Shown: positions 2,446-49,833, numbered from the whole stretch's first letter. The stretch: DNA of 60,817 bases, filler included, from 8 parts of 8 records of this genome joined end to end with filler, not necessarily neighbours in it; one strand, 5' to 3'. Notes: a model not told the origin generated them from the sequence alone. Program-made: numbers and translations.

Positions 2446-4846
2446 GCGGACGTGATCTGTTTAAGGACCCGCTCCGCTTCCTCTCGTCCATCAAAACTTT
2501 TTTCAGCCTGTAGAGATTTTTCAAGATAAATCCTGGCTTGATCCGATTGGCCAAGCCTGTGTAAAGCCATCCCGAGATGGTAATTGATAATAGCGACTTG
2601 CGGGGCTTTCTCCTGGGCTTTTTTCAGCCAGGTCCGAGCCTCTTCAAAATCGCCTTTCCGGTAATGAATCCAGCCCAGAGTGTCGACGACCGACCCTGTA
2701 TGGGGTTTAATTTTAATCGCTTTTTCAGCCCATTCGAGGGCTTCATTGAACCCTTGTTCATCAACAGCCCTCTGGCCGAGGAGAAACGCCAGATCATTGG
2801 CAGCGGACCAGTTGTTCGGATTCTTCTCCAGAGCCTGACGATAGACCCGTATCGCCTCTTCTTGCCGGTTTTCCAGGACATAGATCTGCCCGAGCGTATT
2901 GTAAGCGGAATGGTTGCCGGGGTTATTTCTGATCGCCTCGTTCAGAACAGCAATAACTTTTTCTTTTTTCTCCTGCAGAAGCAGAACCCTGCTGAGATTA
3001 TTCCATGGGACCGGCCACTTTGGCTCCAGATGGAGCGTTTTCCTGAAAGCGGATTCTGCCCCCGGCCAATCTTTTCGGGCCATCAGGACTTCTCCGAGCA
3101 TGTTCTGGATAAAGGGGTTGTCGCTTTTCGCCTTCAGACGGGAACGACAGAACTGTTCAGCCTCTTCCATTTTCCCGGATTTGAGATATTGCCGGATCAG
3201 GGCTCCGGCCAGCAAATTTGATTCAGGAAGTTCCTCGGCCCCCTTTTCCAATTGTTCCAGGGCCTTTTCCGCATGCCCCTGCTTCAGTTCAAGGTCAGAA
3301 AGCTTCAGATACCCCACCGGTGCCTGACGGGTATCTTTCAGCACACCTTTGTAGACTTCTTCAGCACCCTGGTATTCTTTGGAAGCTGCCAGAAGATCAC
3401 CGAGTTCCATCCGCAAAGCCGTATTCTCAGGATCACTCTCAATGAGGTGCTGATAAAATAATTGCGCCTGGCCCAAGTCCCCAGTGGAACCATGGAATCT
3501 GGCCAGAGCCATGTTGAGTTCCATGGATTCGGGATGCTGAAGTAGAGCTTTTTCAAGAACATCCCGGGCCAGGTTGTTTTCCCCGTTCAGGACATGAGCC
3601 TGGGAGAGCCCGATGTGGCCGAGGATCAATTGTGGATTCTCCTGAACAACCGTCCGAAATTCAGGAACAGCATTGACTCCATCCTTGCGCTCGAGCAACA
3701 TGCTTCCTTTCAGAAAATGGGCCTCCACATTAGCCGGACTGTTTTTCAGAACCAGACCGACATGTTCTTCGGCGGAATCAACATCGCCCTTCTGCAGAAA
3801 TATCCGTGCCATGGCATTGCGTGCAAGGACAACCTGAGGATGGTCATCCTTTTCACCCAGATGCAGGCATTCCTGAAGAACGTCCAATGCTTCATCAGGT
3901 TGTTTGGAAACTTTCAGGAGGAAATCGGAAAGCGCGAGGCGAAGTTGGATGTTTTCGGGATTGACGGATATCCCTTTTTTAAGGATGCTCTCGGCTTTAT
4001 CGGCCTGCTTATGCCTGACAAAAAATTCCGCAACACCCACATACCGCTTATCATCCTCCGAATCGGAACTTAAAAACCCGTTGAGAGTGGCCGCCGCTTC
4101 CTCTCTGCGTTCGGCTTCCCAGTACATCCCGGAAAGAAGAAAAATGATTTGGGGATTGTCCCGGTCAATTTTCCAGGCTTCCTCGATTAGCTTGATAGCC
4201 CGTTCCTTGTCATTGCGAGCCCGAGCCCTCTCAGTCAGAGCCAACCGGATGGGCAAAGAATCCGGGTTCGCCGTCAGGCCCTCTTCCAGAACATTTTCCG
4301 CTTTATCCGCATACCCCAGGTTGAGGTAGATGGTTCCAAGAAGCAGAATGACATCCGGGGTGTGAATGCCTTTTTTATACAATGCCTCAAAATGGGGGGC
4401 GGCTTTGTCGAATTCCTTGGTCGCAACCCAGACGGCCCCTTTCAACAGTTGGGCTTCCTGGTTGGCGGGATCTTTTTCCAGAACAAGATCCGCTTTTTCC
4501 ATAGCCTTTTCCGGTACCTTGCTGCCAAGGAAAATTTTCCCCATTTCCACATGCGCCGCCCATTGTTCGGGATCCAACTCAATCGCTTTTTGGAAGTTGC
4601 CGAAAGCAGCTTTCCACTTTTTTCCGCAACAGCGACCTTGCCGAGCATGGTATAGGCGTCGGCAAACTTCAGGTCGATCTGCACGGCGTTCTTGAACTCA
4701 AGACCTGCCTTGGTGTATTCACCCTGTTCAAACAGAACCATCCCCTTGTCGAAGAACTTCATTTTCTTCTCTTCGGGGCCGCTGCAGCCAAGGATCATGG
4801 AAAAGACCAGAAGAAAGCCTATCGGGACAGAAAAGAGCTTGCGCAT
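2442..4846 (-). CDS. TPR-repeat lipoprotein (PrsT-like, EPS/PEP-CTERM associated); frameshift at the T6 run 4618-4623
   Basis: Lipobox 'ILGC' and 'EEKKMKFFDKG...AGLEFKNAVQID' in ORF 4442-4846 join the 711-aa TPR ORF. C-terminus 'DTLGWIHYRKG...INYHLGMAL' is typical of this family. Confidence 0.8.
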
Positions 4847-4985: not shown

Positions 4986-6623
4986 TTATTGGAGAAAAGC
5001 TCGGCCGCCTGTGACCAAGAGCATGGCAAGAACCAGCCATTCCAGGCGCCCGAACTTTCCCCTCATTTCCACAAGCCAGACCTCGACAGCGAAAAAAAGG
5101 GCCACTGTCTGTGCAGCTATGCCAATCATCAGGCCCGAAGAGACAGAGTCGGCTATCGGCATGTTTGGCACCGTCAGGGCGATTAAAAGGATCAGATAAT
5201 CCAGTGGGGTTCCTTTATAACCTTTACGCCGGGTATACCGAATCACCAAAAACATCAGCATGACCAGGACGCCGAAAAGCACCGTCATTACCGACCATGC
5301 AGTCTTCTCAGGTCCGAAAGACTTTTCCATGTCCGTCAGATACAGCAGGAAAGGTACAACCAGGAAAGTACCGAGACGGAGGGCCATTCCCAGCCATTTC
5401 TGAATCAACAAATGTGTCAAAGCCAGCAACGCCGCCAGTCCGAAGCTCAAAAGCCCCAACCATAGCGGGATCTCAACGGGAGCGAAAACAATCAAAACCA
5501 AAATGACTGTTGCACAGATCTGGAGGCCTGGAAAAGAAACACGAATCAACATTTCATGGCTTTTCAACGGCCTGAGAGTACCCATGACCCCTTTTGCCCA
5601 GAAACCTTGCCTGTCCAGACTCCAGTGATATTTTTCCGACAGGTGCAAAGCAGATAAAACAAAAAAGGAAAAGAGCAGGTAGCCCCACAAAAGAAGCCAA
5701 TCCGAAAAAAACCTCAGCAGGAAAGCTGCCACCGTCAGTCCGGTCTGAAGGATATAAATAATCAGGACCGATTCCGAATGCCTAAAACCGATCTTGAGAA
5801 GCTTATGATGAAAGTGGTTCTTGTCAGGAGAAAAAAGGGGCAGCCCGTGGGATTTCCGCTCCAGCATCACCCTCAGGGTATCGAGGATAGGGAAACCGAG
5901 CAGCAGCAGGGCAACCAGCGGGCTGTAAAGCGTCCTCTGGGTCAGGTAAAGGGCCAGAACAACCCCCAGAAAACCCAAAAGCTGGCTGCCGGCATCCCCC
6001 ATGAATACCGTAGCCGGATGGGTGTTGAAACGCAAAAATCCGAAGATAGCGCCGCACATGGCCACGGAAATCAAAGTCAGGCCGATTTTCCCCGCAAAGT
6101 AGGCCAGAAAAGTCAGGCACACGAAACTCAGCAGGGAAATCCCGCCGGCCAGACCATCCAGTCCGTCCGAAAGGTTAATGGCATTGGTCACACCGACGAT
6201 CACAAATATCGTCAGCGGTATCGACAGGACATCCGGAAGAATGAATCCTTCCGGAGCGAGACTACCGAAAGAGTAGATGCGGACATCAGCGAAAACGACA
6301 ACAATGAGAGCGGCAGCCAACTGGACGACTATTTTGCTGCGTGGGTGGAGGTCCCTGAGATCGTCAAAAAAACCGAAGCCGACGATGAGGGCACAGGAGA
6401 CAAAAAGAGGCTGAACCAGAGGTTCATGGGGCGCCCAGAACACCAGGGGAATCAGGGCACCAACCGCCATGGCAAGGCCCCCGGTCCTGGCCATCGGCTG
6501 CGCGTGCACCTTGCGCTCGTTGGGGATATCGACCGCCTGATAATGAAGAGCCAGTTTGCGGAAGATCGGAACCAGCGCCAGAGTCACAAACAGCGAAAGG
6601 AGGAGTGTGCCGAAATACTGCAT
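4986..6623 (-). CDS. wecA: Undecaprenyl-phosphate alpha-GlcNAc-1-phosphate transferase (WecA/TagO/MraY family) with extra C-terminal membrane region
   Basis: Motifs 'DIPNERKVH', 'GGLA', 'GFFDD', 'NAINLSDGLDGLA', 'FMGDAGS', 'DKNHFHH'. ATG at 6623 chosen as start. Confidence 0.85.
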   Translation of the reverse strand: MQYFGTLLLSLFVTLALVPIFRKLALHYQAVDIPNERKVHAQPMARTGGLAMAVGALIPLVFWAPHEPLVQPLFVSCALIVGFGFFDDLRDLHPRSKIVVQLAAALIVVVFADVRIYSFGSLAPEGFILPDVLSIPLTIFVIVGVTNAINLSDGLDGLAGGISLLSFVCLTFLAYFAGKIGLTLISVAMCGAIFGFLRFNTHPATVFMGDAGSQLLGFLGVVLALYLTQRTLYSPLVALLLLGFPILDTLRVMLERKSHGLPLFSPDKNHFHHKLLKIGFRHSESVLIIYILQTGLTVAAFLLRFFSDWLLLWGYLLFSFFVLSALHLSEKYHWSLDRQGFWAKGVMGTLRPLKSHEMLIRVSFPGLQICATVILVLIVFAPVEIPLWLGLLSFGLAALLALTHLLIQKWLGMALRLGTFLVVPFLLYLTDMEKSFGPEKTAWSVMTVLFGVLVMLMFLVIRYTRRKGYKGTPLDYLILLIALTVPNMPIADSVSSGLMIGIAAQTVALFFAVEVWLVEMRGKFGRLEWLVLAMLLVTGGRAFLQ

Positions 6624-6930: not shown

Positions 6931-7030
6931 NNNNNNNNNNNNNNNNNNNNNNNNNNNNNNNNNNNNNNNNNNNNTTAATTAATTAANNNNNNNNNNNNNN
7001 NNNNNNNNNNNNNNNNNNNNNNNNNNNNNN
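6931..7030. other. Artificial contig linker (44N-TTAATTAATTAA-44N)
   Basis: Six-frame-stop spacer, identical at seven positions. Confidence 0.98.
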
Positions 7031-9267: not shown

Positions 9268-10604
9268 ATTTCAGTTCCTTCCAATACCAGCTTGCGCAGT
9301 ACTTCGTAGATTACTTGTCCGCCAAAAAAGAGTGACGGCAGGGAGACTTGTTCGTCGTTTCCATGCACCATGGTAAGCACTCTACTGAAGGGCATATCAT
9401 TGAGCATGGGCGAGTAGCCAAATACATCATGGCCGATAAATCTGCCGTCGGTGTTTCCGAGAGCAATCATTGGCAGAAAAACGGGTTCAGGATCCAGGTT
9501 TTTTGATACCTGTTTAATGGTCCGCGAAAAGGCACTCTCCATGTCGGTCAGGTATCCAGGTGTGTAACCGGTCAGGTTCCATTCCACTTGCTCTGTTTTC
9601 AGCAGTTCTGTAAATAGTTTGCGGCACTCTTCTTGCGTGGTTCCTGGAATGAGCTTGAAATCAACTTTTAATTTCAGACCAGGTTGATGGTCATCGCCGG
9701 GATTTTCCGAGCTTCCGGTATTCACCAGGTTATCGGCATCCGTTAAGCTTTCGGCAATTGCCAAGCCATCGGCATCGATATCGAAAGCACAAATCTGCAT
9801 ATCGTTCTTTATCCCGTACTCCCACATATTGCGCAGTGTCGGGTCAGTGTAGGTTGCATCGGGGATTGTATTCTGGAATTCCTGCATGACTTCAGTCACG
9901 ATTTCGGGAGATTTATAGGAACTCAGGCGATTCAACAGACTGTTTGCTTTTTCCATGAGTTGGCTGGTGCTGAGTTCTGCCTCTCTGTTTATGGTTATTT
10001 CAAGTGTGCATTTCCCTTTTTCACCACAGACGCAGTATCGGTAATCAATACCATTCTGGCTGACAATGAAACCGCCGCCTTCGCTTATAGTCCATGCGTT
10101 TCCAGGAAAGTATTCAGGATATGTTTCAGTCAGATACTGCATACCATAGGCACTGCCGCCCTCTTCATCAGCTGAGGCGATAAATATCACGGTTCTGTCG
10201 AATGATCTATTCTCTTTAACCAATAGAAGCAGGGCTATCAGTTCCATAGCTGTCAGCTGCTTGGTATCTATGGTACCCCGGCCATGCAGGTATCCGTCCA
10301 CGACATCACCACTGAACCCGTCAAAACTCCACTCTTCCTGCTTTACCGGCACAACATCGAGATGGGAAAGCAGTAGTATAGGGTTTTTGTCGGTTTTGCC
10401 TTCCACTACGGCTACTAGATTAGAGCGATTGGGGACTTTTTCTATGATACGGCTTTGGATACCAGCTTCCTGCAGAATGTTTTGCAGGTATTCAGCCGCA
10501 GCCCGTTCATTTCCAGGCGGATTGATCGATTTTACACGAATTAGATCCTGCAGGATGCGGGTAAGCTGCTGTTCTGCTGCGGTATTCCACATCGACATAC
10601 TCAC
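9264..10604 (-). CDS. M20 family metallopeptidase/deacylase (ArgE/DapE/ACY1-like)
   Basis: Intact metal ligands: 'SHLDVVP', 'GRGTIDTK', 'ADEE', 'SEGG', 'HGNDE'. Confidence 0.88.
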   Translation of the reverse strand: MSMSMWNTAAEQQLTRILQDLIRVKSINPPGNERAAAEYLQNILQEAGIQSRIIEKVPNRSNLVAVVEGKTDKNPILLLSHLDVVPVKQEEWSFDGFSGDVVDGYLHGRGTIDTKQLTAMELIALLLLVKENRSFDRTVIFIASADEEGGSAYGMQYLTETYPEYFPGNAWTISEGGGFIVSQNGIDYRYCVCGEKGKCTLEITINREAELSTSQLMEKANSLLNRLSSYKSPEIVTEVMQEFQNTIPDATYTDPTLRNMWEYGIKNDMQICAFDIDADGLAIAESLTDADNLVNTGSSENPGDDHQPGLKLKVDFKLIPGTTQEECRKLFTELLKTEQVEWNLTGYTPGYLTDMESAFSRTIKQVSKNLDPEPVFLPMIALGNTDGRFIGHDVFGYSPMLNDMPFSRVLTMVHGNDEQVSLPSLFFGGQVIYEVLRKLVLEGTEI

Positions 10605-15802: not shown

Positions 15803-15902
15803 NNNNNNNNNNNNNNNNNNNNNNNNNNNNNNNNNNNNNNNNNNNNTTAATTAATTAANNNNNNNNNNNNNNNNNNNNNNNNNNNNNNNNNNNNNNNNNN
15901 NN
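15803..15902. other. Artificial contig linker
   Basis: N44-TTAATTAATTAA-N44. Confidence 0.98.
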
Positions 15903-20986: not shown

Positions 20987-21086
20987 NNNNNNNNNNNNNN
21001 NNNNNNNNNNNNNNNNNNNNNNNNNNNNNNTTAATTAATTAANNNNNNNNNNNNNNNNNNNNNNNNNNNNNNNNNNNNNNNNNNNN
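20987..21086. other. Artificial contig linker
   Basis: N44-TTAATTAATTAA-N44. Confidence 0.98.
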
Positions 21087-28792: not shown

Positions 28793-28892
28793 NNNNNNNN
28801 NNNNNNNNNNNNNNNNNNNNNNNNNNNNNNNNNNNNTTAATTAATTAANNNNNNNNNNNNNNNNNNNNNNNNNNNNNNNNNNNNNNNNNNNN
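28793..28892. other. Artificial contig linker
   Basis: N44-TTAATTAATTAA-N44. Confidence 0.98.
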
Positions 28893-37717: not shown

Positions 37718-37817
37718 NNNNNNNNNNNNNNNNNNNNNNNNNNNNNNNNNNNNNNNNNNNNTTAATTAATTAANNNNNNNNNNNNNNNNNNNNNNNNNNN
37801 NNNNNNNNNNNNNNNNN
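37718..37817. other. Artificial contig linker
   Basis: N44-TTAATTAATTAA-N44. Confidence 0.98.
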
Positions 37818-41462: not shown

Positions 41463-43127
41463 TTATATTATGTTTAGGTATTTTTCTGCTATAGATTTCT
41501 CTTCACCATCTAATTTATCTAATAATAAGTCAGTATAAAAGTTCTTTGCTGTATCTCTAGCTGTTTTAGAAAGCCTTTCATCAAGGTTATTACAATAATT
41601 AAGAATAGTATCTAATAGTTTATAAACTTTTAAATCAGCCGCTAATATTAACAGCATTTTTCTAAGCATCCACCATTCATTCTCATTCTTAAGAACTTTT
41701 TCTATTATTTCGGCGATATCCTTATTTGGATATTTTTCTAAATGAATTACACTTTTTGCCCTAACTTCTCTTTTTACATTTTCATCTAATATTAACGCTT
41801 TTAAACAATCATAAGAAACGTCGATTCTTTTCAAGCTTTTTACTGCCACTTCTAAAAGTTCAGGTGAATCTCTTCTTTCATTTAAGACCTCTTCAATTAT
41901 AGAAGAAACCTTCTCATTATCAAAATTAACTAATATTTTTAGAGTATCCAGTTTAATATCTTTTACAAATTTAGCTTCTTCTAAAATTTCATCTAAGATT
42001 TCTTCATAACCAAGCTTAGCAAGTGCCTCCACAGTAACTTTTTTCAGTTCTGATTTTGCACTAGTTAGGAATTTTTTCAGTTCCTCTTTTGTATCATCAT
42101 CACCAATATTTCCAAGCTCTGTTATTATTGTTCGAAGAACTCTTTCGTCTTCCTCCATGCTTATTAAAGCAGTTAACTCTTTTAGATAGCTCTCTCCTTC
42201 TGATTTAGCTAAAATTATCACTGCAAACTTCTTTATCAGCCACCACTCATCTGGAATAAAGGCCATCATTTTTACTTTTTCCATTACTTCTTCATCTTTA
42301 GTTAGATTATATAGAGCTCCAAGTGCTTTTGCTCTGATATCTCTATCATCACTGTCAAGTAATTCAAGTAAAAATTGCTTTTTTGACTCTCCTTGTAGCT
42401 CCTCTAAACTTTCTATTAAGAATAGTTTCATCTCTTTAGTATCTATTTTACTATAAAGCTTCTCAATGATACCTTTGAAATTTGTAATATGTAAATCACA
42501 GATACTAGAGATAATAACTCTTATAATCTTATTATCATCTACTTCATCAATCAACTTATTTAACACAATTTCTGCTTTTTCTTCAGGAATTAATCCCAAG
42601 ATGTTTAGAAGCTCATCTTCGTGCATATTATTAATATAATTATGAAATAGTGTTGAGTCTTTAAGGTATGCTTTAATTATATTTTTTATTACTTTGTTTT
42701 TATCATTATAATACCTTATCATAAGCTTTACTGCTTCTTCAGTATGAATCACATTCAACATATCTATTATATCTCTTTTTAAATCAATATTTTCACTTGT
42801 CAAGAAATCCTTAAATTCGCTGATATACTCAATCGCATTAAGTTTTTTAACCGATGAAACTACTAACTCAAGTACATCATCATCATCAATTTGTTTAAAT
42901 GGTACTAGTGCCTCTAAAAAGTCTTTGTCCCCAATTTCAGCAAGTGCTAAAATACTTTTTCCTCTAATTGCTCTACTAGCTTCATTATTCACAGCAAATT
43001 TCGTAAGTGCATTTTTAGCTTTTAAACTCTTCAATTTCCCTAGTTCATTAATAGCTTGTACTTTTTCCTCTTCACTAATTGTCTGTCCCAACTTTTCAAT
43101 ATAAAGATACTCAAGATATGTACTCAA
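41463..43127 (-). CDS. HEAT/PBS-lyase repeat protein
   Basis: Repeated 'IRxxA/SxxALxxIG' helices and two 'EWW' repeats; AGGAG RBS favours the TTG at 43127. Confidence 0.8.
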   Translation of the reverse strand: MSTYLEYLYIEKLGQTISEEEKVQAINELGKLKSLKAKNALTKFAVNNEASRAIRGKSILALAEIGDKDFLEALVPFKQIDDDDVLELVVSSVKKLNAIEYISEFKDFLTSENIDLKRDIIDMLNVIHTEEAVKLMIRYYNDKNKVIKNIIKAYLKDSTLFHNYINNMHEDELLNILGLIPEEKAEIVLNKLIDEVDDNKIIRVIISSICDLHITNFKGIIEKLYSKIDTKEMKLFLIESLEELQGESKKQFLLELLDSDDRDIRAKALGALYNLTKDEEVMEKVKMMAFIPDEWWLIKKFAVIILAKSEGESYLKELTALISMEEDERVLRTIITELGNIGDDDTKEELKKFLTSAKSELKKVTVEALAKLGYEEILDEILEEAKFVKDIKLDTLKILVNFDNEKVSSIIEEVLNERRDSPELLEVAVKSLKRIDVSYDCLKALILDENVKREVRAKSVIHLEKYPNKDIAEIIEKVLKNENEWWMLRKMLLILAADLKVYKLLDTILNYCNNLDERLSKTARDTAKNFYTDLLLDKLDGEEKSIAEKYLNII

Positions 43128-43140
43128 ATGACTCACTCCT

Positions 43141-43302
43141 TTAAATAATTTCTCCGTCAAAAAAATTGATAACCTTATCTACAAAATCATCACTTTGCCC
43201 ATCTTTTTCTTCAACTTTTTTTCCAGAGTTGATAATATATTTTATTTTTATGTTAAGTTTTGTTTTTTCTCTTAAAATCTCCTCTATCACTCCACCATAG
43301 TT
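43141..43302 (-). CDS. dnaX: C-terminus of probable DNA polymerase III gamma/tau (5'-truncated; not in the ORF track)
   Basis: Manual translation ends ...DDFVDKVINFFDGEII*, resembling DnaX C-termini. Confidence 0.55.
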   Translation of the reverse strand, partial: NYGGVIEEILREKTKLNIKIKYIINSGKKVEEKDGQSDDFVDKVINFFDGEII

Positions 43303-43402
43303 NNNNNNNNNNNNNNNNNNNNNNNNNNNNNNNNNNNNNNNNNNNNTTAATTAATTAANNNNNNNNNNNNNNNNNNNNNNNNNNNNNNNNNNNNNNNNNN
43401 NN
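43303..43402. other. Artificial contig linker
   Basis: N44-TTAATTAATTAA-N44. Confidence 0.98.
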
Positions 43403-44632
43403 TTCCTCAAACGCCCCACCCTTTTTCCTGAAAAGCTTTACGTTGCCATCAATTGTAGCTGTATCAACGGCACGAAGAGTTTCAAAGCTCGGCTTTACAT
43501 CGCATTTGCAATCTGCTTTAACCGTATTAAATTTCCATTCGCTTTTACTATCTCCTGCAACCGCCACCGTATCGGCAGGTGTGGGCTGAATAGGATTCTT
43601 GTCTTGAATAGCGGCAACTGAATTAAAGAAGTTACCCATCGGGTTTTCTGTAATAGAGAAATGGAAAGCTGTTACGACTTCGTTTCTTTGTCTTTTGTCG
43701 CCTACGATTTTTTCCCAGATTTTGAGTCCGTAGTTAGTGATTTGTCTCGCACCTTCGGCCTCTTGTACTGCCGGTACATCCGTTGCGTATGCAGGATACT
43801 CATCATTGGCTTTTTCGAGAGACACCTTCAAAACATTGTTTCTAACAGTTCCATCAGGAGCGATGTAGGTGGAACCGGTTTCCTCGTAATAATCTTCTTC
43901 TGCAAAAACGAGGAAGAAGTTATCCGGCTGTACCGGTTTCTTATTGATGTCTTTAAGTCCGTTTTCCGTCAAGCCGGTAATCACTATAAGATAGGTATGA
44001 CCAGGCTCGAAATCGGCTGGAATTGTTCCGCCGAGAGTTTTTCTTACAGTAAGAAAGTACGGATGAGCGTCTGCTCCGGCGTAGTTGAAAGACATTACAT
44101 ATTCGCTTGAAGTTATAACTTCAGGATTATCCTTGTCTGTCACATCAAAAAAGAAGAAGTTCGCTTTGTCTTCGTTTGCAGCACTGTCGTCATACTGCAC
44201 GAGGCTTTCCATATCAATCTTTTGCGAGAACGGAATGTTCACGATAAATCCCGGAACAAAGCCGCTTAGCAAATTCATGCCTGAAACCAGATATTTGGTT
44301 AGGGCGGAATCTTCCACTGCCGGATAACCGAGGTCTTTTCGTATTGCCAAAGCCTTGCCTTCAGTTATCGGAAGATTCATTCCTGTAGGTCTTTCAGATG
44401 CTTTTTCCACTCCGGGAATACTCAGATAATCATACTGCTGGCCCGGATTAAGCAGGTTTGTCGGTAGCGGCATCACACCCCAATCAGGGTTGACTATCGC
44501 AATCGGTTCGGTTTCGTAACCGACATTTGACGGATCATCCTGACCTACATCGGGACAACCGGAAATAAGAGCAGCAAGCGATAAAATCGCCAAAAAGCTC
44601 ATTGAAAGACGAACAAAACGTGGAAAAATCAT
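43403..44632 (-). CDS. Large lipoprotein with Ig-like N-terminal region resembling VolA/Pla-1 lipase N-termini (3'-truncated)
   Basis: Lipobox 'ISGC'; 'PLPTNLL...MNLP...MNLLSGF...IPFSQKIDMESL', 'FEPGHTYLIVIT...LKD'. Confidence 0.55.
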
Positions 44633-44818
44633 GATTCCTCCCTTTTTTTCAAGAATCCACTATATAATTTTACTAAAAACCTTACTGATTTGGATTATTC
44701 AGCAATCATTGCCGCATATTCTACTCCAGCGTAATTGGATTATCAACATTTTCACCATTTAAAACCGATAAGACTTGCATAACCATAAGTCTATGATATC
44801 CTTGCGTCTTATTTTTTG

Positions 44819-45261
44819 ATGATGTTTGATGATGGAAAAAGTGTATTGAAAATTAGCGTTAGACCGATCGACAAAGAACCTTGGCAAAAAACAGCCGCCC
44901 TGATAATATTGATAATGCTTTCAAGCATTTTCTCGGCTTATTTCATGGGAAGTAGCTACTGGGGATTATTCGCTCTTGCGGTTCTCGTAATCGCCACCAA
45001 AAACTACTTCATCAGGATCGAATTCGAGCTTTTGGACGATAAAATCATCATCGACCGTGGACTACTCAAAAAAGAGCGAAAATGGAGCGAGTTTTATCGG
45101 GTTGTCAGCGATAAACAGGGAGTATTTTTATCCTGTTTTAAAAAGCATCGAAACTTGACGCCTTTCGAGGCGAATATATACTTTGCTACGAGAAAAAATC
45201 GGAGGTTGCCGAGTTTGCCAGAGCGAGGATCGAACAAAGAGAAACCAAAGTCAATCCGTGA
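44819..45261 (+). CDS. Operon gene A: 2-TM protein with soluble beta-rich C-terminal domain; indel at the A run 45140-45144
   Basis: Correcting one base gives '...GVFLSCFKKASKLDAFRGEYILCYEKKSEVAEFARARIEQRETKVNP*' (TGA 45259-45261). The ORF track's 260-aa protein is a chimera of A and B. Confidence 0.6.
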
Positions 45262-45598
45262 ATGGTTGACTTTCGCTTTCAAAGTTCCGGAAAAAGGTGA
45301 ATTATCCGAGGAAGATATAGCACTTTTGGATAAAATGGCTGATTTTCTTGAGAAAAAGTCATTGATGGAAGCGGCGATTCTTGGTATGGAAACCATACGA
45401 CCACTTAATTTTGTCGGAGCGCAAGCCTTGGCTTTCTTGCGACCATTCGTGCATATGGTATATAAGAAAAAAGAGGAATATGACAAATTTACCGAGTTGC
45501 TTGAAAACAGGCATACTCTGGGACAATTTGTAGAAATCCTTGAAGCTAGAATAGCTCGTTTGTCCGATAATGAAAAGGAAGAGGATAAAAGTGTATAA
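45215..45598 (+). CDS. Operon gene B: small helical hypothetical protein
   Basis: GGAGG RBS then TTG at 45215; 'LLDKMA...AAILGMETIRPLNFVGAQALAFLRPFV...LLENR'. Confidence 0.65.
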   Translation: MPERGSNKEKPKSIREWLTFAFKVPEKGELSEEDIALLDKMADFLEKKSLMEAAILGMETIRPLNFVGAQALAFLRPFVHMVYKKKEEYDKFTELLENRHTLGQFVEILEARIARLSDNEKEEDKSV

Positions 45599-47126
45599 GC
45601 GACTGATTTTATTGATTGTTTCTATTGTTTTCATGTTTTCTGCTACTGCTTCGGCACAGTTGCCGAAAGTGGTTGATTTTACAGGAGACGATGTCAAAAA
45701 CGATGCCGGACAAAGTGTCGTTCTGACCTGGCCGAAACAGAATGGAGAAAACCCGAACTGGCGATATATTATCGAGGCTTCGGCAAATTCCGATGGCCCC
45801 TGGACTCGTGTTGCCCGCTTCGGTTCGATGTTGCAGTGGAAAGAAGATTATCCGGAGATTTTCGGTCATCCAGATGAAAATGATCTGCAAAAGACTCATG
45901 CTCTGAAAGTTAGCCTAGCTCCTCCATCATCAGAAATGATAGGGGAACTAAAGAGCAAAGCTGAAGCTTCTTTATTGGCAGCTAAGGAAAAAATTTCAAA
46001 TATTGAAGAAAAAATCAGTAAAGTCAAAGCTGAATTCGCATCGTACTCCAGACAAAGAGAGCAATTGCAGGAAAGATTATCCAAAGCTCCAAAAGGTGAT
46101 GATGATGTTTCACGAGACAAACGCGTTTCAATTGCTGCAACACTTGAGGATTTAAAAAGGGAAAACAGACATCTCGATCGCCTTTACGATCAGAAATCTT
46201 CGGTATCTAAAAAAATCCAGCAATACACAACATGGTCACCACCTGTTACAACCACGCTAAAGCCTGGAAATCAGTACTATTTCCGCATTTCAGCAGAACA
46301 ATCGGGTGAGGTTGGCCCTATTGCTACAACAACAGCAACACCCTGGGGTAACTGGATAAACACCAATCGTTTGCATAATCTTCTGATTGCTCTTTTGCTT
46401 GCTTCGCTGATTATCATTTATACATTGAAAGCTCGCAAAAATCCGGAAAACATTTTTGTTCGTCGTATTGCAGGTCTTGAAGCCGTCGATGATGCCATCG
46501 GACGCGCAACCGAGATGGGAAAGCCGATTTTCTTTGTTCATGGTCTTGCAAATCTGGCCTCGATTTCAACAGTGGCTGCAATTAACATTCTAGGTAAAAT
46601 CGCCGAAAAAGTCGCGGAATACGGAACGGAATTCAAGGTCACTAACCGTGACCCGGTTGTTTTGGCTGTCAGTCAGGAAACTGTAAAAGAAGCGTATCTT
46701 AGAACCGGAAGACCGGATCTATATAATGAAGACCACGTATTTTACGTCAGTCAGGATCAGTTCTCCTATGCAACCGGTGTTGAAGGAATGTTTTTGCGTG
46801 AGCAACCGGCATCCTGCTTCTACTTCGGATACTACTACGCCGAGGCGTTGCTACTTACAGAAACCGGATCTCATATCGGAGCGATTCAGATTGCAGGAAC
46901 AGACAGCTACACACAGCTACCGTTTTTCATCACAACTTGCGATTACACTTTGATGGGTGAAGAGCTTTACGCAGCGAGTGCATATATGTCACGTGAACCT
47001 AAACTTCTGGCAAGTCTTAAAGCACAGGATATTACAAAAGGTATTCTGCTAATATTCGCTTTGCTCGGAGTTGTGCTTTCTACAAGCGGAATCATGTGGC
47101 TGGTTAACTGGACGGAATCATTCTGA
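45591..47126 (+). CDS. Operon gene C: signal peptide, FN3-like extracellular region with coiled-coil insert, TM, DUF6754-like domain, TM
   Basis: 'VRRIAGLEAVDDAIGRATEMGKP', 'QLPFFITTCDYTLMGEELYAASAY', 'SLKAQD'. The DUF6754 label is from memory. GTG start after GAGGA (alternative ATG 45570). Confidence 0.75.
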   Translation: MYKRLILLIVSIVFMFSATASAQLPKVVDFTGDDVKNDAGQSVVLTWPKQNGENPNWRYIIEASANSDGPWTRVARFGSMLQWKEDYPEIFGHPDENDLQKTHALKVSLAPPSSEMIGELKSKAEASLLAAKEKISNIEEKISKVKAEFASYSRQREQLQERLSKAPKGDDDVSRDKRVSIAATLEDLKRENRHLDRLYDQKSSVSKKIQQYTTWSPPVTTTLKPGNQYYFRISAEQSGEVGPIATTTATPWGNWINTNRLHNLLIALLLASLIIIYTLKARKNPENIFVRRIAGLEAVDDAIGRATEMGKPIFFVHGLANLASISTVAAINILGKIAEKVAEYGTEFKVTNRDPVVLAVSQETVKEAYLRTGRPDLYNEDHVFYVSQDQFSYATGVEGMFLREQPASCFYFGYYYAEALLLTETGSHIGAIQIAGTDSYTQLPFFITTCDYTLMGEELYAASAYMSREPKLLASLKAQDITKGILLIFALLGVVLSTSGIMWLVNWTESF

Positions 47127-47187
47127 TTTTTACACAGATTAAGAAATTAAAACATACAGGATTTGAGTTAGTAACGAGGTTTTTTGG

Positions 47188-47838
47188 ATGATATTTTTAA
47201 AGAGACAGCTACCTTTAATAATTGCATTTATCTTTGGTATTCTTGGCATTGTCATCGGATATGTGCCTCACCAGAGCTTTGAAGATCTTTATACCGAGCT
47301 TGTCAACTGGGATAGATTGCTTGCAGCTTTTGCTCTTTTACTCGGTATGTATTCGCTGCTTAGAATGCACTGGAAACGCATCGAGAGAAGACAGGAAGGC
47401 TTTGGCTTTTCCATCATTTTGTGGTTCGGCTTTCTGCTTACTTTCGGAGTCGGAATCTACAACGAAGGTGACTGGATGTTCGCCAACAGAACAAGCCACG
47501 GAATGACAAGCTGGATATACGATTATGTTTTCAAACCGGCTGGCGCGACAATGTTTTCCGTTCTTGCCTTTTTTATCGCATCTGCCGCCTACAGAACATT
47601 CCGTGCCAGAACCGTTTCGGCGGGATTGCTTCTTTGTGCTGCTCTGGTCGTCATGATCGGTCAGGTTCCAATTGGAGATTTGATTTCACACAGAATTCCG
47701 GAACTTTCGATCTGGTTGATGGAAATACCTAACGCAGCCGTAAAACGCGGTATCTTCCTTGGTGTCGCTTTGGGTGTTGTCGCTACCTCGCTTCGTATCA
47801 TCTTCGGTGTCGAACGAGCATACCTGGGAGGTGAATAA
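47188..47838 (+). CDS. Operon gene D: membrane protein with about 6 TMs, unknown function
   Basis: 'ATMFSVLAFFIASAAYRTFRAR', 'PNAAVKRGIFLGVALG...LRIIFGVER'. Confidence 0.8.
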   Translation: MIFLKRQLPLIIAFIFGILGIVIGYVPHQSFEDLYTELVNWDRLLAAFALLLGMYSLLRMHWKRIERRQEGFGFSIILWFGFLLTFGVGIYNEGDWMFANRTSHGMTSWIYDYVFKPAGATMFSVLAFFIASAAYRTFRARTVSAGLLLCAALVVMIGQVPIGDLISHRIPELSIWLMEIPNAAVKRGIFLGVALGVVATSLRIIFGVERAYLGGE

Positions 47839-48680
47839 TGAAGCGTGAAACATTACAAAAACTACTTGATCTTGACCGCAGATGGATCTTTTTGTTCGTG
47901 CTTATTGCTGCAATCGTAGCAAGACTTGCAGAGTTCAATTTGCCAAGCATTCCCAAAAAGCGAGTCACGGAAATGTATAACGAAGTGGAAAAGCTTGCCA
48001 AAGAAGACAAGATTCTGCTTATTTCGATGGATTACGATCCATCCGGAAAACCTGAGCTTGAGCCTATGTCAAGAGCAGTTTTAAGACATGCTTTCATGCG
48101 CGATATAAAAGTCGTCGGCATGACTCATAACCCTCACGGACAAAACCTTGCACAGTCCGTCATGGAACAGACAGCCGCAGAATACGGCAAGGAATACGGT
48201 AAAGATTACGTATACTTAGGCTACAAAACAGGCTTCGCAACCCTCATCATTAATATGGGACAGGACTTTTACGGAGCTTTTCCCTTCGACTTCAAGGGAG
48301 TAGACACAAAATCATATCAAGTCACCGCAGGCATAAACTCACTTGCCGATTTCGGTTACGTCGTCTCGATTGCATCAAACGCCGCATGGGAAATGTGGAT
48401 GATTTTCGGACGTGAAAAATATCGCTTTACTCTTGGAACGGGCACAACAGGAGTTATCGCTCCCGATGTTTTCCCGTTTTTACAAACAGGTCAGATTACT
48501 GGACTTTTAGGAGGCTTGGCCGGTGCCGCCGAATATGAAACTCTGATAAACAAACCGGATCGAGCTGAAATAGGAATGAGACCGCAATCCGCTGTCCATA
48601 TGCTTTTGGTTCTGCTTGTTATTTTTGGTAATGTCATTTTCTACTGGGAGCGCAGGCTTGCCAGAAAGCGCAGAGCATAA
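47838..48680 (+). CDS. Operon gene E: alpha/beta domain anchored by N- and C-terminal TMs
   Basis: 'LISMDYDP...ELEPM', 'YGKDYVYLGY', 'GLLGGLAGAAEYE'; TAATG overlap with gene D. Confidence 0.8.
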   Translation: MKRETLQKLLDLDRRWIFLFVLIAAIVARLAEFNLPSIPKKRVTEMYNEVEKLAKEDKILLISMDYDPSGKPELEPMSRAVLRHAFMRDIKVVGMTHNPHGQNLAQSVMEQTAAEYGKEYGKDYVYLGYKTGFATLIINMGQDFYGAFPFDFKGVDTKSYQVTAGINSLADFGYVVSIASNAAWEMWMIFGREKYRFTLGTGTTGVIAPDVFPFLQTGQITGLLGGLAGAAEYETLINKPDRAEIGMRPQSAVHMLLVLLVIFGNVIFYWERRLARKRRA

Positions 48681-48690
48681 GGAGGTCATG

Positions 48691-49583
48691 ATGGATAAAG
48701 AACAACTAAGAGATAGAATCCTCTTTATTATTCTGGCAGCAGTTATCGTTGTCTCGAATATTTACCTGTTCGCAAGTGGACAGCTCCCTGGGACTGGACC
48801 GGCATAGGGATTATGATTGCAGCGACAATCACCATTTCGATGTACAGCTTTTTGTATAAAGACAACGTTCTTTTCAAAATAGTCGAACATCTTTATATCG
48901 GTGTTGCAGCAGGTTACGTTACTGCCATTTACTGGTTCAACATCTTCTGGCCAGAGCTTGTAAAGCCTCTCGCCGTTCCCGATCCGGGCGAAGAAAGAAA
49001 CTGGCTCAGACTCATTCCAATGCTGCTTGGTGTCGCTCTTTTGATGCGCCTAAGTAATCGTTTTGGCTGGGTTTCTCGTGTTCCGTTTGCCTTTATCATG
49101 GGATTTTTCTCAGGTATCGCTATTCCGAACTACATCCAGACTTTCATGATCGAGCAGCTTCATTATACGGTTCAACCGCTGTTTACATCCGCCGACAGTA
49201 CTCATTTGATACTCGAAGCTCTCTTTTTGGTTACCGTGCTAATATATCTGGTTCTCGATTGGCTATGGCTATCCGTGCTAAATAAACCATGGGTAAATAT
49301 TTTGTGTATGATTCCGGCTCTGGTCTTTTTGGCTATCGGAATCTTTGCACCGATTCCGGGCATCAGTCAGATTGTTGTACTTTTGGGTACGCTAAGTGTC
49401 CTGATTTACTTCTTTTTCTCGGTCGAGCAAAAAGGAGCAGTGGCAACAGCAAGCAAGCTTGGTATCTACTTCCTGATGGTCAGCTTCGGAGCTTCATTCG
49501 GTTATACGATTATGGCCAGAATGTCGCTTTTGGTTGGTCGGTTGGAATTCCTGCTTCGCGACTGGCTTGGCATCAGCCTGTAA
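48691..49583 (+). CDS. Operon gene F: polytopic membrane protein; indel at 48786-48788
   Basis: AAGGAGGT RBS and MDKEQLRDR... start. Adding one C gives '...QLPWDWTGIGIMIAATITISMYSFLYKDN', in frame with ORF 48813-49583. Confidence 0.75.
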
Positions 49584-49600
49584 AATTGAATATTTAGAGC

Positions 49601-49733
49601 ATGTATTACAACACCACACTTGCCATTCTATGCGGGGGAAAAGCCAAAAGAATGAATGGTGTGGAAAAAGGACTGATTGAGATCGACGGGCAAACGATAA
49701 TCGAAAAACAGATAAAAACTCTTTCTCCTTTTT
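49601..49733 (+). CDS. mobA: Molybdenum cofactor guanylyltransferase MobA-like NTP transferase (3'-truncated)
   Basis: 'AILCGGKAKRMNGVEKGLIEIDGQTIIE'. Confidence 0.75.
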
Positions 49734-49833
49734 NNNNNNNNNNNNNNNNNNNNNNNNNNNNNNNNNNNNNNNNNNNNTTAATTAATTAANNNNNNNNNNN
49801 NNNNNNNNNNNNNNNNNNNNNNNNNNNNNNNNN
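49734..49833. other. Artificial contig linker
   Basis: N44-TTAATTAATTAA-N44. Confidence 0.98.

Follow-up and report, generated by a model that had tools for sequence, protein, structure and literature searches.

The window analysed here, a stretch of DNA of 60,817 nt, contains a compact operon of six genes, A to F (Table 1), which appears to encode the membrane-bound part of an uncharacterised system built around a protein with a DUF6754 domain. The window consists of eight contigs linked by seven spacers, in each of which 12 bases stand between two runs of 44 N, so that statements about neighbouring genes are valid only within the 6.3 kb contig bearing the operon (43403-49733). The G+C (GC) content of the contigs runs from about 0.28 to 0.51, that of the operon contig being ~0.42 compared with ~0.30 in the adjoining ones, and the contigs possibly come from more than one organism.

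The original prediction for this region was of six co-oriented and tightly packed genes, and open reading frames (ORFs), junctions and profile matches all bear this out. Genes A and B overlap by 47 nt, B and C by 29 nt and D and E by 1 nt, while the gap of 10 nt between E and F contains AAGGAGG, the strong ribosome-binding site that had been described. The TTG start of B sits nine bases after a GGAGG at 45201. Hydropathy likewise agrees with the expected topology, with two transmembrane (TM) helices in A, none in B and TM segments flanking C and E, and the motifs that had been quoted for the last four genes are present: RRIxGLxAxDxAIGRATEMGxP in C, FFIASAAYRxF in D, GLxGAAEYE in E and SFLYKDN in F.

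Two genes require comment. The ORF list gives a 260-aa ORF at 44816-45598 and, after E, a 63-aa ORF followed by a 256-aa ORF in a different frame. The prediction had explained this as the ORF track fusing A with B and splitting F; the layout behind that explanation holds, but the ORF track is not the sole cause, since 1-nt homopolymer frameshifts in A and F are present in the sequence itself. As given, A has a 1-nt deletion in a T4A5 run (45136-45144), where one added base restores the frame; its conserved C-terminus (KLDAFRGEY...) is out of frame with the N-terminal part, and the A profile matches the window in two frames, at 44828-45208 and 45142-45246. F has a 1-nt deletion in a G-run (48790-48792), where one added base joins the beginning of the gene to the 256-aa ORF. 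In L001, a locus from a Myxococcota metagenome-assembled genome that is the closest relative found, A and B are separate, overlapping genes and F is a single 296-aa ORF (L001:12992-13882). The remaining four genes of the window, B to E, are intact, with no in-frame stops or other lesions. The frameshifts are most simply read errors in homopolymers, with real lesions as the alternative.

Table 1. Features of the operon and its surroundings, in window coordinates unless a locus is named
Feature	Position	Strand	Description
Gene A	44816 (ATG at 44819) to TGA 45259-45261	+	Small, 2 TM helices, short soluble tail; broken frame
Gene B	45215 (TTG) to 45598	+	127 aa, soluble, helical; motif RPLNFxGxQ...P
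Gene C	45570-47126	+	DUF6754 domain coding part 46344-47123
Gene D	47188-47838	+	216 aa, polytopic
Gene E	47838-48680	+	TM helix, Rossmann-like alpha/beta domain, TM helix
Gene F	48691-49583	+	Polytopic; broken frame
Lipoprotein gene, cut by contig end	43403..44632	-	Signal peptide, lipobox-like SGC; divergent from operon
Intergenic region	44633..44815	.	183 nt, divergent
MobA-like nucleotidyltransferase start, cut by contig end	49601..49733	+	PF12804 E=1e-8
Spacers	6931-7030, 15803-15902, 20987-21086, 28793-28892, 37718-37817, 43303-43402, 49734-49833		
DUF6754 genes in relatives	L036 8657-9448, L037 8788-9579, L044 5741-6520, L046 8466-9257		No detectable D, E, F after

Relatives of the operon were mapped by tblastn and profile searches in two sets of loci, comprising 21 fetched DUF6754 loci of Myxococcota and the best 80 of at least 588 metagenome loci. 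Genome-level counts refer to 301 sampled Myxococcota genomes, which are kin. For the window itself, the ORFs scanned against Pfam and NCBIfam were the fused A+B ORF, those of C, D and E, and the two pieces of F.

Only C can be placed in a Pfam family. It begins with a signal peptide and an exported Fn3-like region; after a first TM helix comes the DUF6754 domain (PF20539, E=5.3e-113, residues 260-513, with TM segments on either side), and a further TM helix forms the C-terminus. DUF6754 would face the cytoplasm, because a Lys/Arg-rich stretch separates it from the first TM helix. It is highly conserved: an alignment of 22 sequences, 41-86% identical to the first of them (L001), has 43 invariant columns, including R, E, C-D-Y-T and G-E-E and no invariant His. 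The exported region gives a weak fn3 match and carries a coiled-coil insert of ~100 aa, which weakly matches periplasmic adaptor and SMC coiled coils, far under the family cut-offs. Between the window and L001, identity reaches 86% in the DUF6754 part of C and in D, 75% in E and 76% in F, and falls to 28% in the C ectodomain.

D, the most conserved subunit, has about six TM helices by eye and the motif FFIASAAYRxFRAR; F is characterised by SFLYKDN and YFFFSVE.KG, and alignments show invariant charged residues in both. For E, an AlphaFold2 model built from 109 sequences (predicted local distance difference test score, pLDDT, 97.5) has a long second TM helix and a domain for which fold searches return generic Rossmann-like structures only (Foldseek E>=3e-3), the best structural match being 1kjn_B (Z 10.0, root-mean-square deviation, rmsd, 3.9, 140 residues). 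Both ends of E are Arg/Lys-rich, so that this domain would face outward, into the periplasm.

Outside C, no Pfam or NCBIfam match was obtained at E<=0.001 in the fused A+B ORF, D, E or the F pieces, the sole weak match being to DUF5345 (E=0.0097), located in the shorter, N-terminal fragment of F. In particular, and as had been predicted, no ATPase, kinase or known permease family is found among the scanned ORFs. Searches of the PDB by sequence gave nothing under E=0.01 for D, F, DUF6754, the B profiles or the ATPase and partner described below, and the ESM Atlas returned only unnamed clusters for D and F. Among 50 relatives of D and 49 of F, Pfam matches amount to noise, with all best E-values >=0.001: DUF373 in 12/50 and Acyl_transf_3 in 8/50 for D, and DUF3704 in 23/49 for F. 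Possible internal relationships were also examined and rejected, no paralogy being detectable between D and F (hhalign probability 0.3) or between DUF6754 and E (5.7, over a TM helix only).

These proteins are nevertheless abundant. For D there are 2263 relatives, not one of which bears a name that denotes a function; F has 1562, and E is represented by 3183 clusters at 50% identity. Where the relatives are named at all, the label is ‘hypothetical’ or ‘putative membrane protein’, with Kuenenia, Jettenia, Brocadiales, Latescibacteria, Oligoflexia and Myxococcota among their source names. A bacterial spread over several phyla, including anammox Planctomycetota and Latescibacterota, can be seen from these names and from Atlas rows. 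That the four genes recur together, as the original prediction had stated, is now documented: C is followed by D, E and F in 17/21 Myxococcota loci and in 47/49 metagenome cassettes with 3 kb of downstream sequence. The genes are thus syntenic elsewhere, with A and B lying ahead of C-F in the closest relatives, and the conserved order together with the null searches supports the predicted existence of a single multi-subunit membrane system that matches no characterised family. Judged by sequence, C-D-E-F is one copy of a widespread, uncharacterised four-gene DUF6754 cassette. No characterised family or solved structure was found by sequence for this membrane unit, and E is the only one of its parts to have been modelled.

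Some variation in the cassette deserves mention. In L040, L042 and L043, D reaches ~500 aa through a ~280-aa insertion in an outward loop, which has no Pfam match; D, like C, can therefore carry variable exported parts. At L044 the DUF6754 gene is followed by one for a 755-aa PEGA-domain protein. L036 and L037 are second DUF6754 copies, in genomes that also hold a full operon of the window type.

The gene content of relatives extends beyond the six genes of the window. Most loci contain, between B and C, a gene for a protein of ~610 aa from the GlmL/MutL family (PF13941, E ~1e-105 to 1e-122), and the commonest order is (A)-B-ATPase-partner-C-D-E-F. Among the 301 Myxococcota genomes, DUF6754 is present in 33, PF13941 above the cut-off in 34 and both in 32. 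The corresponding Fisher p of ~1e-39 is inflated by kinship of the genomes, and its true weight is therefore lower. The ATPase associated with the cassette is a long form, ~600-640 aa, whereas the two genomes with the ATPase only have nothing but short forms of 446-480 aa. The phosphate and adenosine motifs of the acetate and sugar kinase/Hsc70/actin (ASKHA) superfamily, DCGSTTTK, DIGGATTD and GSGGVLSHAP, are invariant in 12/12 ATPase sequences. At L042, the locus of genome G055, a ~54-aa ATPase remnant (9704-9865) lies directly 5' of a complete C-D-E-F, a possible loss of the engine.

The ATPase is followed, in 29/29 metagenome loci, by a gene for a soluble partner of ~375 aa. Its sub-threshold matches are to RnfC_N and NqrA_N (E 4.6e-4 to 5.8e-3). 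In a model built from 15 sequences (pLDDT 85.5), a barrel-sandwich hybrid domain comes first, a swivelling beta/beta/alpha domain second and a KOW-like barrel last. The second of these matches enzyme I of the phosphotransferase system (PTS; 2wqd_A, Z 9.3, rmsd 2.7, 107 residues aligned), rifampin phosphotransferase (5hv1_A, Z 8.8), RraA (Z 8.7) and the extra domain of pyruvate kinase (2e28_A, Z 8.3). The KOW-like barrel gives Z 8.5, and all fold matches cover single domains only. No invariant or near-invariant His is seen in the 15 partner sequences.

A third component has nearly the same distribution. B belongs to a family of 176 clusters, typically of ~95 aa, that lacks a name or Pfam domain and shares the core RPLNFxGSQ...P...LLE.R; B of the window, scanned within the fused A+B ORF, similarly had no Pfam match. 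The B profile has one match each in 32 of the 301 Myxococcota genomes, exactly the set with both DUF6754 and the ATPase, and B stays single-copy even where a genome has two DUF6754 genes. It lies directly 5' of the ATPase gene in 22/23 metagenome loci, separated from it by -16 to +158 nt, and in the 23rd, L081, overlaps it by 83 nt. L080 has two B genes (3805-4179 and 5917-6282) and is unique among the 80 metagenome loci in this respect. On this distribution B is a third fixed, single-copy partner of cassette and ATPase, recognised here for the first time; being single-copy and tied to the ATPase, it forms part of a single-copy module of B, ATPase and partner. A is found ahead of B in nine Myxococcota loci and in four metagenome loci of the 25 with B (26 B matches), and so is a lineage-limited accessory. 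A bacterial pleckstrin homology (PH) domain after the TM hairpin was looked for in A, and 1/8 A sequences gave a weak bPH_6 match (E=0.028, below the cut-off).

The layout of the window, A-B-C-D-E-F with ATPase and partner absent from the locus, is a minority type. B lies directly 5' of C only in this type, namely in L001, L038, L039, L041, L044, L061 and L064. The same layout as in the window is seen in L001, L039 and L041 and also in L061 and L064, the A side being cut or undetected in L038 and L044. In 5/5 genomes with the window layout there is one PF13941 gene, on a different contig; in the four of these that were fetched, it is followed by the partner gene, and none of A, B and C-F lies within ~7 kb. 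It would seem that the ATPase and its partner were relocated in the window lineage while A and B were kept at the head of the cassette. The original prediction had pictured an ATP-independent system. Since the ATPase is on another contig in all five window-type relatives, that part is probably wrong, and the occurrence of an ATPase with preserved motifs in 32/33 DUF6754 genomes points the same way: the system is probably ATP-driven, with its ATPase encoded elsewhere in the genome. A further arrangement is seen in genome G245 (L050), where ATPase and partner are ~9 kb apart with an H+-pyrophosphatase gene in between, so the module can be split in more than one way.

The intergenic region upstream of A is, by its position, the likely promoter region of the operon. 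Beyond it, the divergent lipoprotein gene has no Pfam or NCBIfam match; its product is 44% identical to that of L001:7282-8949, which has a Big_5 Ig-like domain and is the sole homologue found. Within L001 5249-8949, the lipoprotein gene adjoins one of FadL/TodX type for an outer-membrane protein. Next to the FadL-like gene L001 also has one of the MobA-like family, in an arrangement differing from that of the window. The MobA-like gene downstream of F is taken here simply as a neighbour of the system. A general link to the outer membrane was considered and rejected, the lipoprotein and FadL neighbours being confined to the window and L001 and absent from the 20 other Myxococcota loci and the 80 metagenome loci. 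More widely, 93 flanking ORFs from 18/21 Myxococcota loci, picked by a crude filter on G+C at third codon positions (GC3) from 251 ORFs of >=110 aa, are mostly housekeeping. MacB/FtsX-type permease genes are found just 3' of F in two loci (L048 12575-15439 and L050 4185-5585). On the neighbouring low-GC contig of the window, a 565-aa repeat-rich ORF, HEAT/armadillo-like by eye, occupies 41463-43160 on the minus strand and is unrelated to the operon.

What might such a system do? The reading we favour, tentatively and with confidence somewhat short of even, is that the six genes encode the membrane half of an envelope machine driven by ATP, which would probably serve transport and then probably uptake. 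Gene content, gene order, co-occurrence and the folds of E and the partner are observed; docking, energy coupling, transport and its direction we infer. C would contribute an exported Fn3-like head and the highly conserved cytoplasmic DUF6754 domain, D and F would form the polytopic membrane core and E would place its Rossmann-like domain on the outer face. In the cytoplasm, a single-copy trio would consist of B, the long GlmL/MutL-type actin-fold ATPase and the 375-aa partner. The ATPase module may dock onto the DUF6754 domain, B acting as a fixed accessory or adaptor. The turnover of ATP would then pass via C into D and F and drive a conformational cycle that moves substrate across, or at, the inner membrane, while E and the head of C would handle substrate outside. 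Transport is favoured because of the polytopic pair with its invariant charged residues and because one module serving several cassettes recalls the importers of the energy-coupling factor (ECF) type. The more general proposal, that this is a new class of primary-active envelope machine in which a shared module of B, actin-fold ATPase and partner powers interchangeable four-protein units for inner-membrane transport, goes further and is put forward with correspondingly greater reserve, as a possibility that we would not yet call likely. We know of no transporter class driven by an actin-fold ATPase.

Several observations weigh against this interpretation. Four loci hold a DUF6754 gene without D, E and F (Table 1), and G055 has DUF6754 together with only a remnant of the ATPase and no B. 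Among 62 exported heads of C, fn3 is matched at E<=1e-3 in only nine and no ligand-binding family is matched; DUF5057 is found in one and the remainder have no match, the heads being mostly small and weakly Fn3-like. The neighbouring genes, which it had been suggested might hint at a substrate, show no common theme in 18/21 Myxococcota loci. The ATPase credited to the window organism is extrapolated from its relatives, and with frameshifts in two of its six genes in the sequence as supplied, this copy could be decaying. Finally, we found no publication on DUF6754, PF20539 or PF13941, supplementary files being outside the search.

The alternative that survives best, though we regard it as unlikely, is a machine for envelope remodelling or anchoring. 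Here a chaperone-like ATPase would pull on DUF6754 in order to move or assemble an outer structure, for example a polymer, a surface protein or a link across the envelope, and the coiled-coil arm that C has in the window lineage would extend to partners in the outer membrane. The membership of the ATPase in PF13941, a family of GlmL/MutL accessory proteins, is in keeping with this, as is the swivelling domain of the partner, for which Foldseek weakly lists the glycerol dehydratase reactivase 1nbw_A (E=0.014). The ~100-aa insert in C, with its resemblance to periplasmic adaptor and SMC coiled coils, and the divergent lipoprotein gene by the operon, whose counterpart in L001 comes with a FadL-type gene, can be read in the same way. 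However, those coiled-coil matches are far below family cut-offs, the outer-membrane neighbours do not extend beyond the window and L001, and the fold matches are to single common domains at Z 8-9.

A second alternative would be that the A and F frameshifts are real and the block a decaying pseudo-operon, functionless in the window organism. Two 1-nt deletions inside 4.8 kb, each breaking one gene, might suggest as much. Yet both fall in homopolymer runs, the usual site of read errors; the other four genes are free of lesions, the core remains 75-86% identical to L001 and the family-invariant motifs are retained. We therefore consider decay distinctly unlikely.

It is improbable, too, that the system is a membrane-bound enzyme with DUF6754 as its catalytic domain, which the ATPase pair would activate or repair in the manner of the chaperones of B12 enzymes. 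The conservation of DUF6754 does resemble that of an active site, with its 43 invariant columns in 22 sequences, and the ATPase comes from a family of accessory proteins. Against this, no enzyme family or solved structure was matched by sequence, no cofactor motif was recognised in DUF6754, which has no invariant His, and an enzyme alone would hardly account for the exported domain and the three additional membrane subunits.

Most improbable of all, in our view, is a self-contained, ATP-independent complex of the six proteins acting as a secondary transporter or sensor: the block has no ATPase, kinase or nucleotide-binding family in its scanned ORFs, cassettes without an adjacent ATPase exist elsewhere (L034 and L035, for example, and 16/37 metagenome loci with >=4.5 kb upstream) and G055 keeps C-D-E-F beside a mere remnant, but 32/33 DUF6754 genomes also hold the ATPase, as do all five relatives with the layout of the window, and the window itself encodes B, which elsewhere lies directly 5' of the ATPase in 22/23 loci.

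If the ATP-driven interpretation is correct, an actin-fold ATPase powering a membrane unit would represent a novel form of coupling between ATP and the envelope. Relatives of the four membrane proteins number in the thousands, yet our searches found no name, solved structure or publication for them. To this the window adds B as a third fixed component and reveals a natural split, in which B remains with the membrane unit once the ATPase moves away. B is for that reason a candidate adaptor and a handle for pull-down experiments.

By sequence searches, and by the fold matches of E and the partner, the system appears to lie outside known kinds. A tripartite efflux adaptor of the HlyD/EmrA type can be set aside, since only the coiled coil of C matches TIGR00998, with 17.1 bits against a cut-off of 390.8. 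With PTS enzyme I and other phosphoenolpyruvate-utilising enzymes, the likeness is the swivelling fold of the central domain of the partner (Z 9.3); the partner has no invariant His, and a phospho-histidine relay of the PTS type is therefore not supported. Rnf and Nqr complexes show a weak likeness to the system in the barrel-sandwich domain of the partner (Pfam matches below the cut-off; NqrA 4u9o_A, Z 7.4, 64 residues) and, roughly, in subunit sizes. The polytopic subunits of those complexes have conserved Cys for a membrane iron centre, and NqrC and RnfG have an FMN-binding fold. Neither D nor F matches an Rnf or Nqr family, however, the D alignment lacks an invariant Cys and E is Rossmann-like, unlike the FMN-binding fold expected for NqrC/RnfG, so that the likeness is limited to one common small domain.

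ATP-binding cassette (ABC) transporters are also excluded as a family assignment: no ABC nucleotide-binding or membrane-domain family is matched at E<=0.1 in the scanned ORFs of the window, and among the 50 D and 49 F relatives there are only five weak TMD0_ABC matches (best E 0.065). In ECF-type ABC importers, one shared energising module serves several membrane units for substrate capture. The likeness to these is one of layout only, a genome having one ATPase, one partner and one B with one or two cassettes; the system differs in having no ABC ATPase, EcfT or S-component family, the energising protein being of the actin fold.

The closest parallels for the ATPase, which is encoded by relatives and not in the window, are GlmL/MutL and the diol/glycerol dehydratase reactivases of DdrA/GdrA type. 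It is a PF13941 protein, from an accessory family that has a name but has received little study, with intact actin-fold motifs, and the swivelling beta/beta/alpha fold found in the partner is also listed for the reactivase 1nbw_A. GlmL of glutamate mutase has a reactivase role. No client B12 mutase or dehydratase was found in the 93 flanking ORFs of 18/21 loci; the flank of L034 contains one unrelated gene for a B12-binding radical SAM protein. The difference from GlmL and the reactivases lies in the long form of the ATPase and in its co-occurrence with a membrane cassette. Finally, the operon most resembles other DUF6754 cassettes (PF20539), with which it shares the family match of C and the usual order of D, E and F, and from which it is distinguished by the presence of A and B at its head, by an ATPase pair lying off the locus and by the coiled-coil insert in the head of C.

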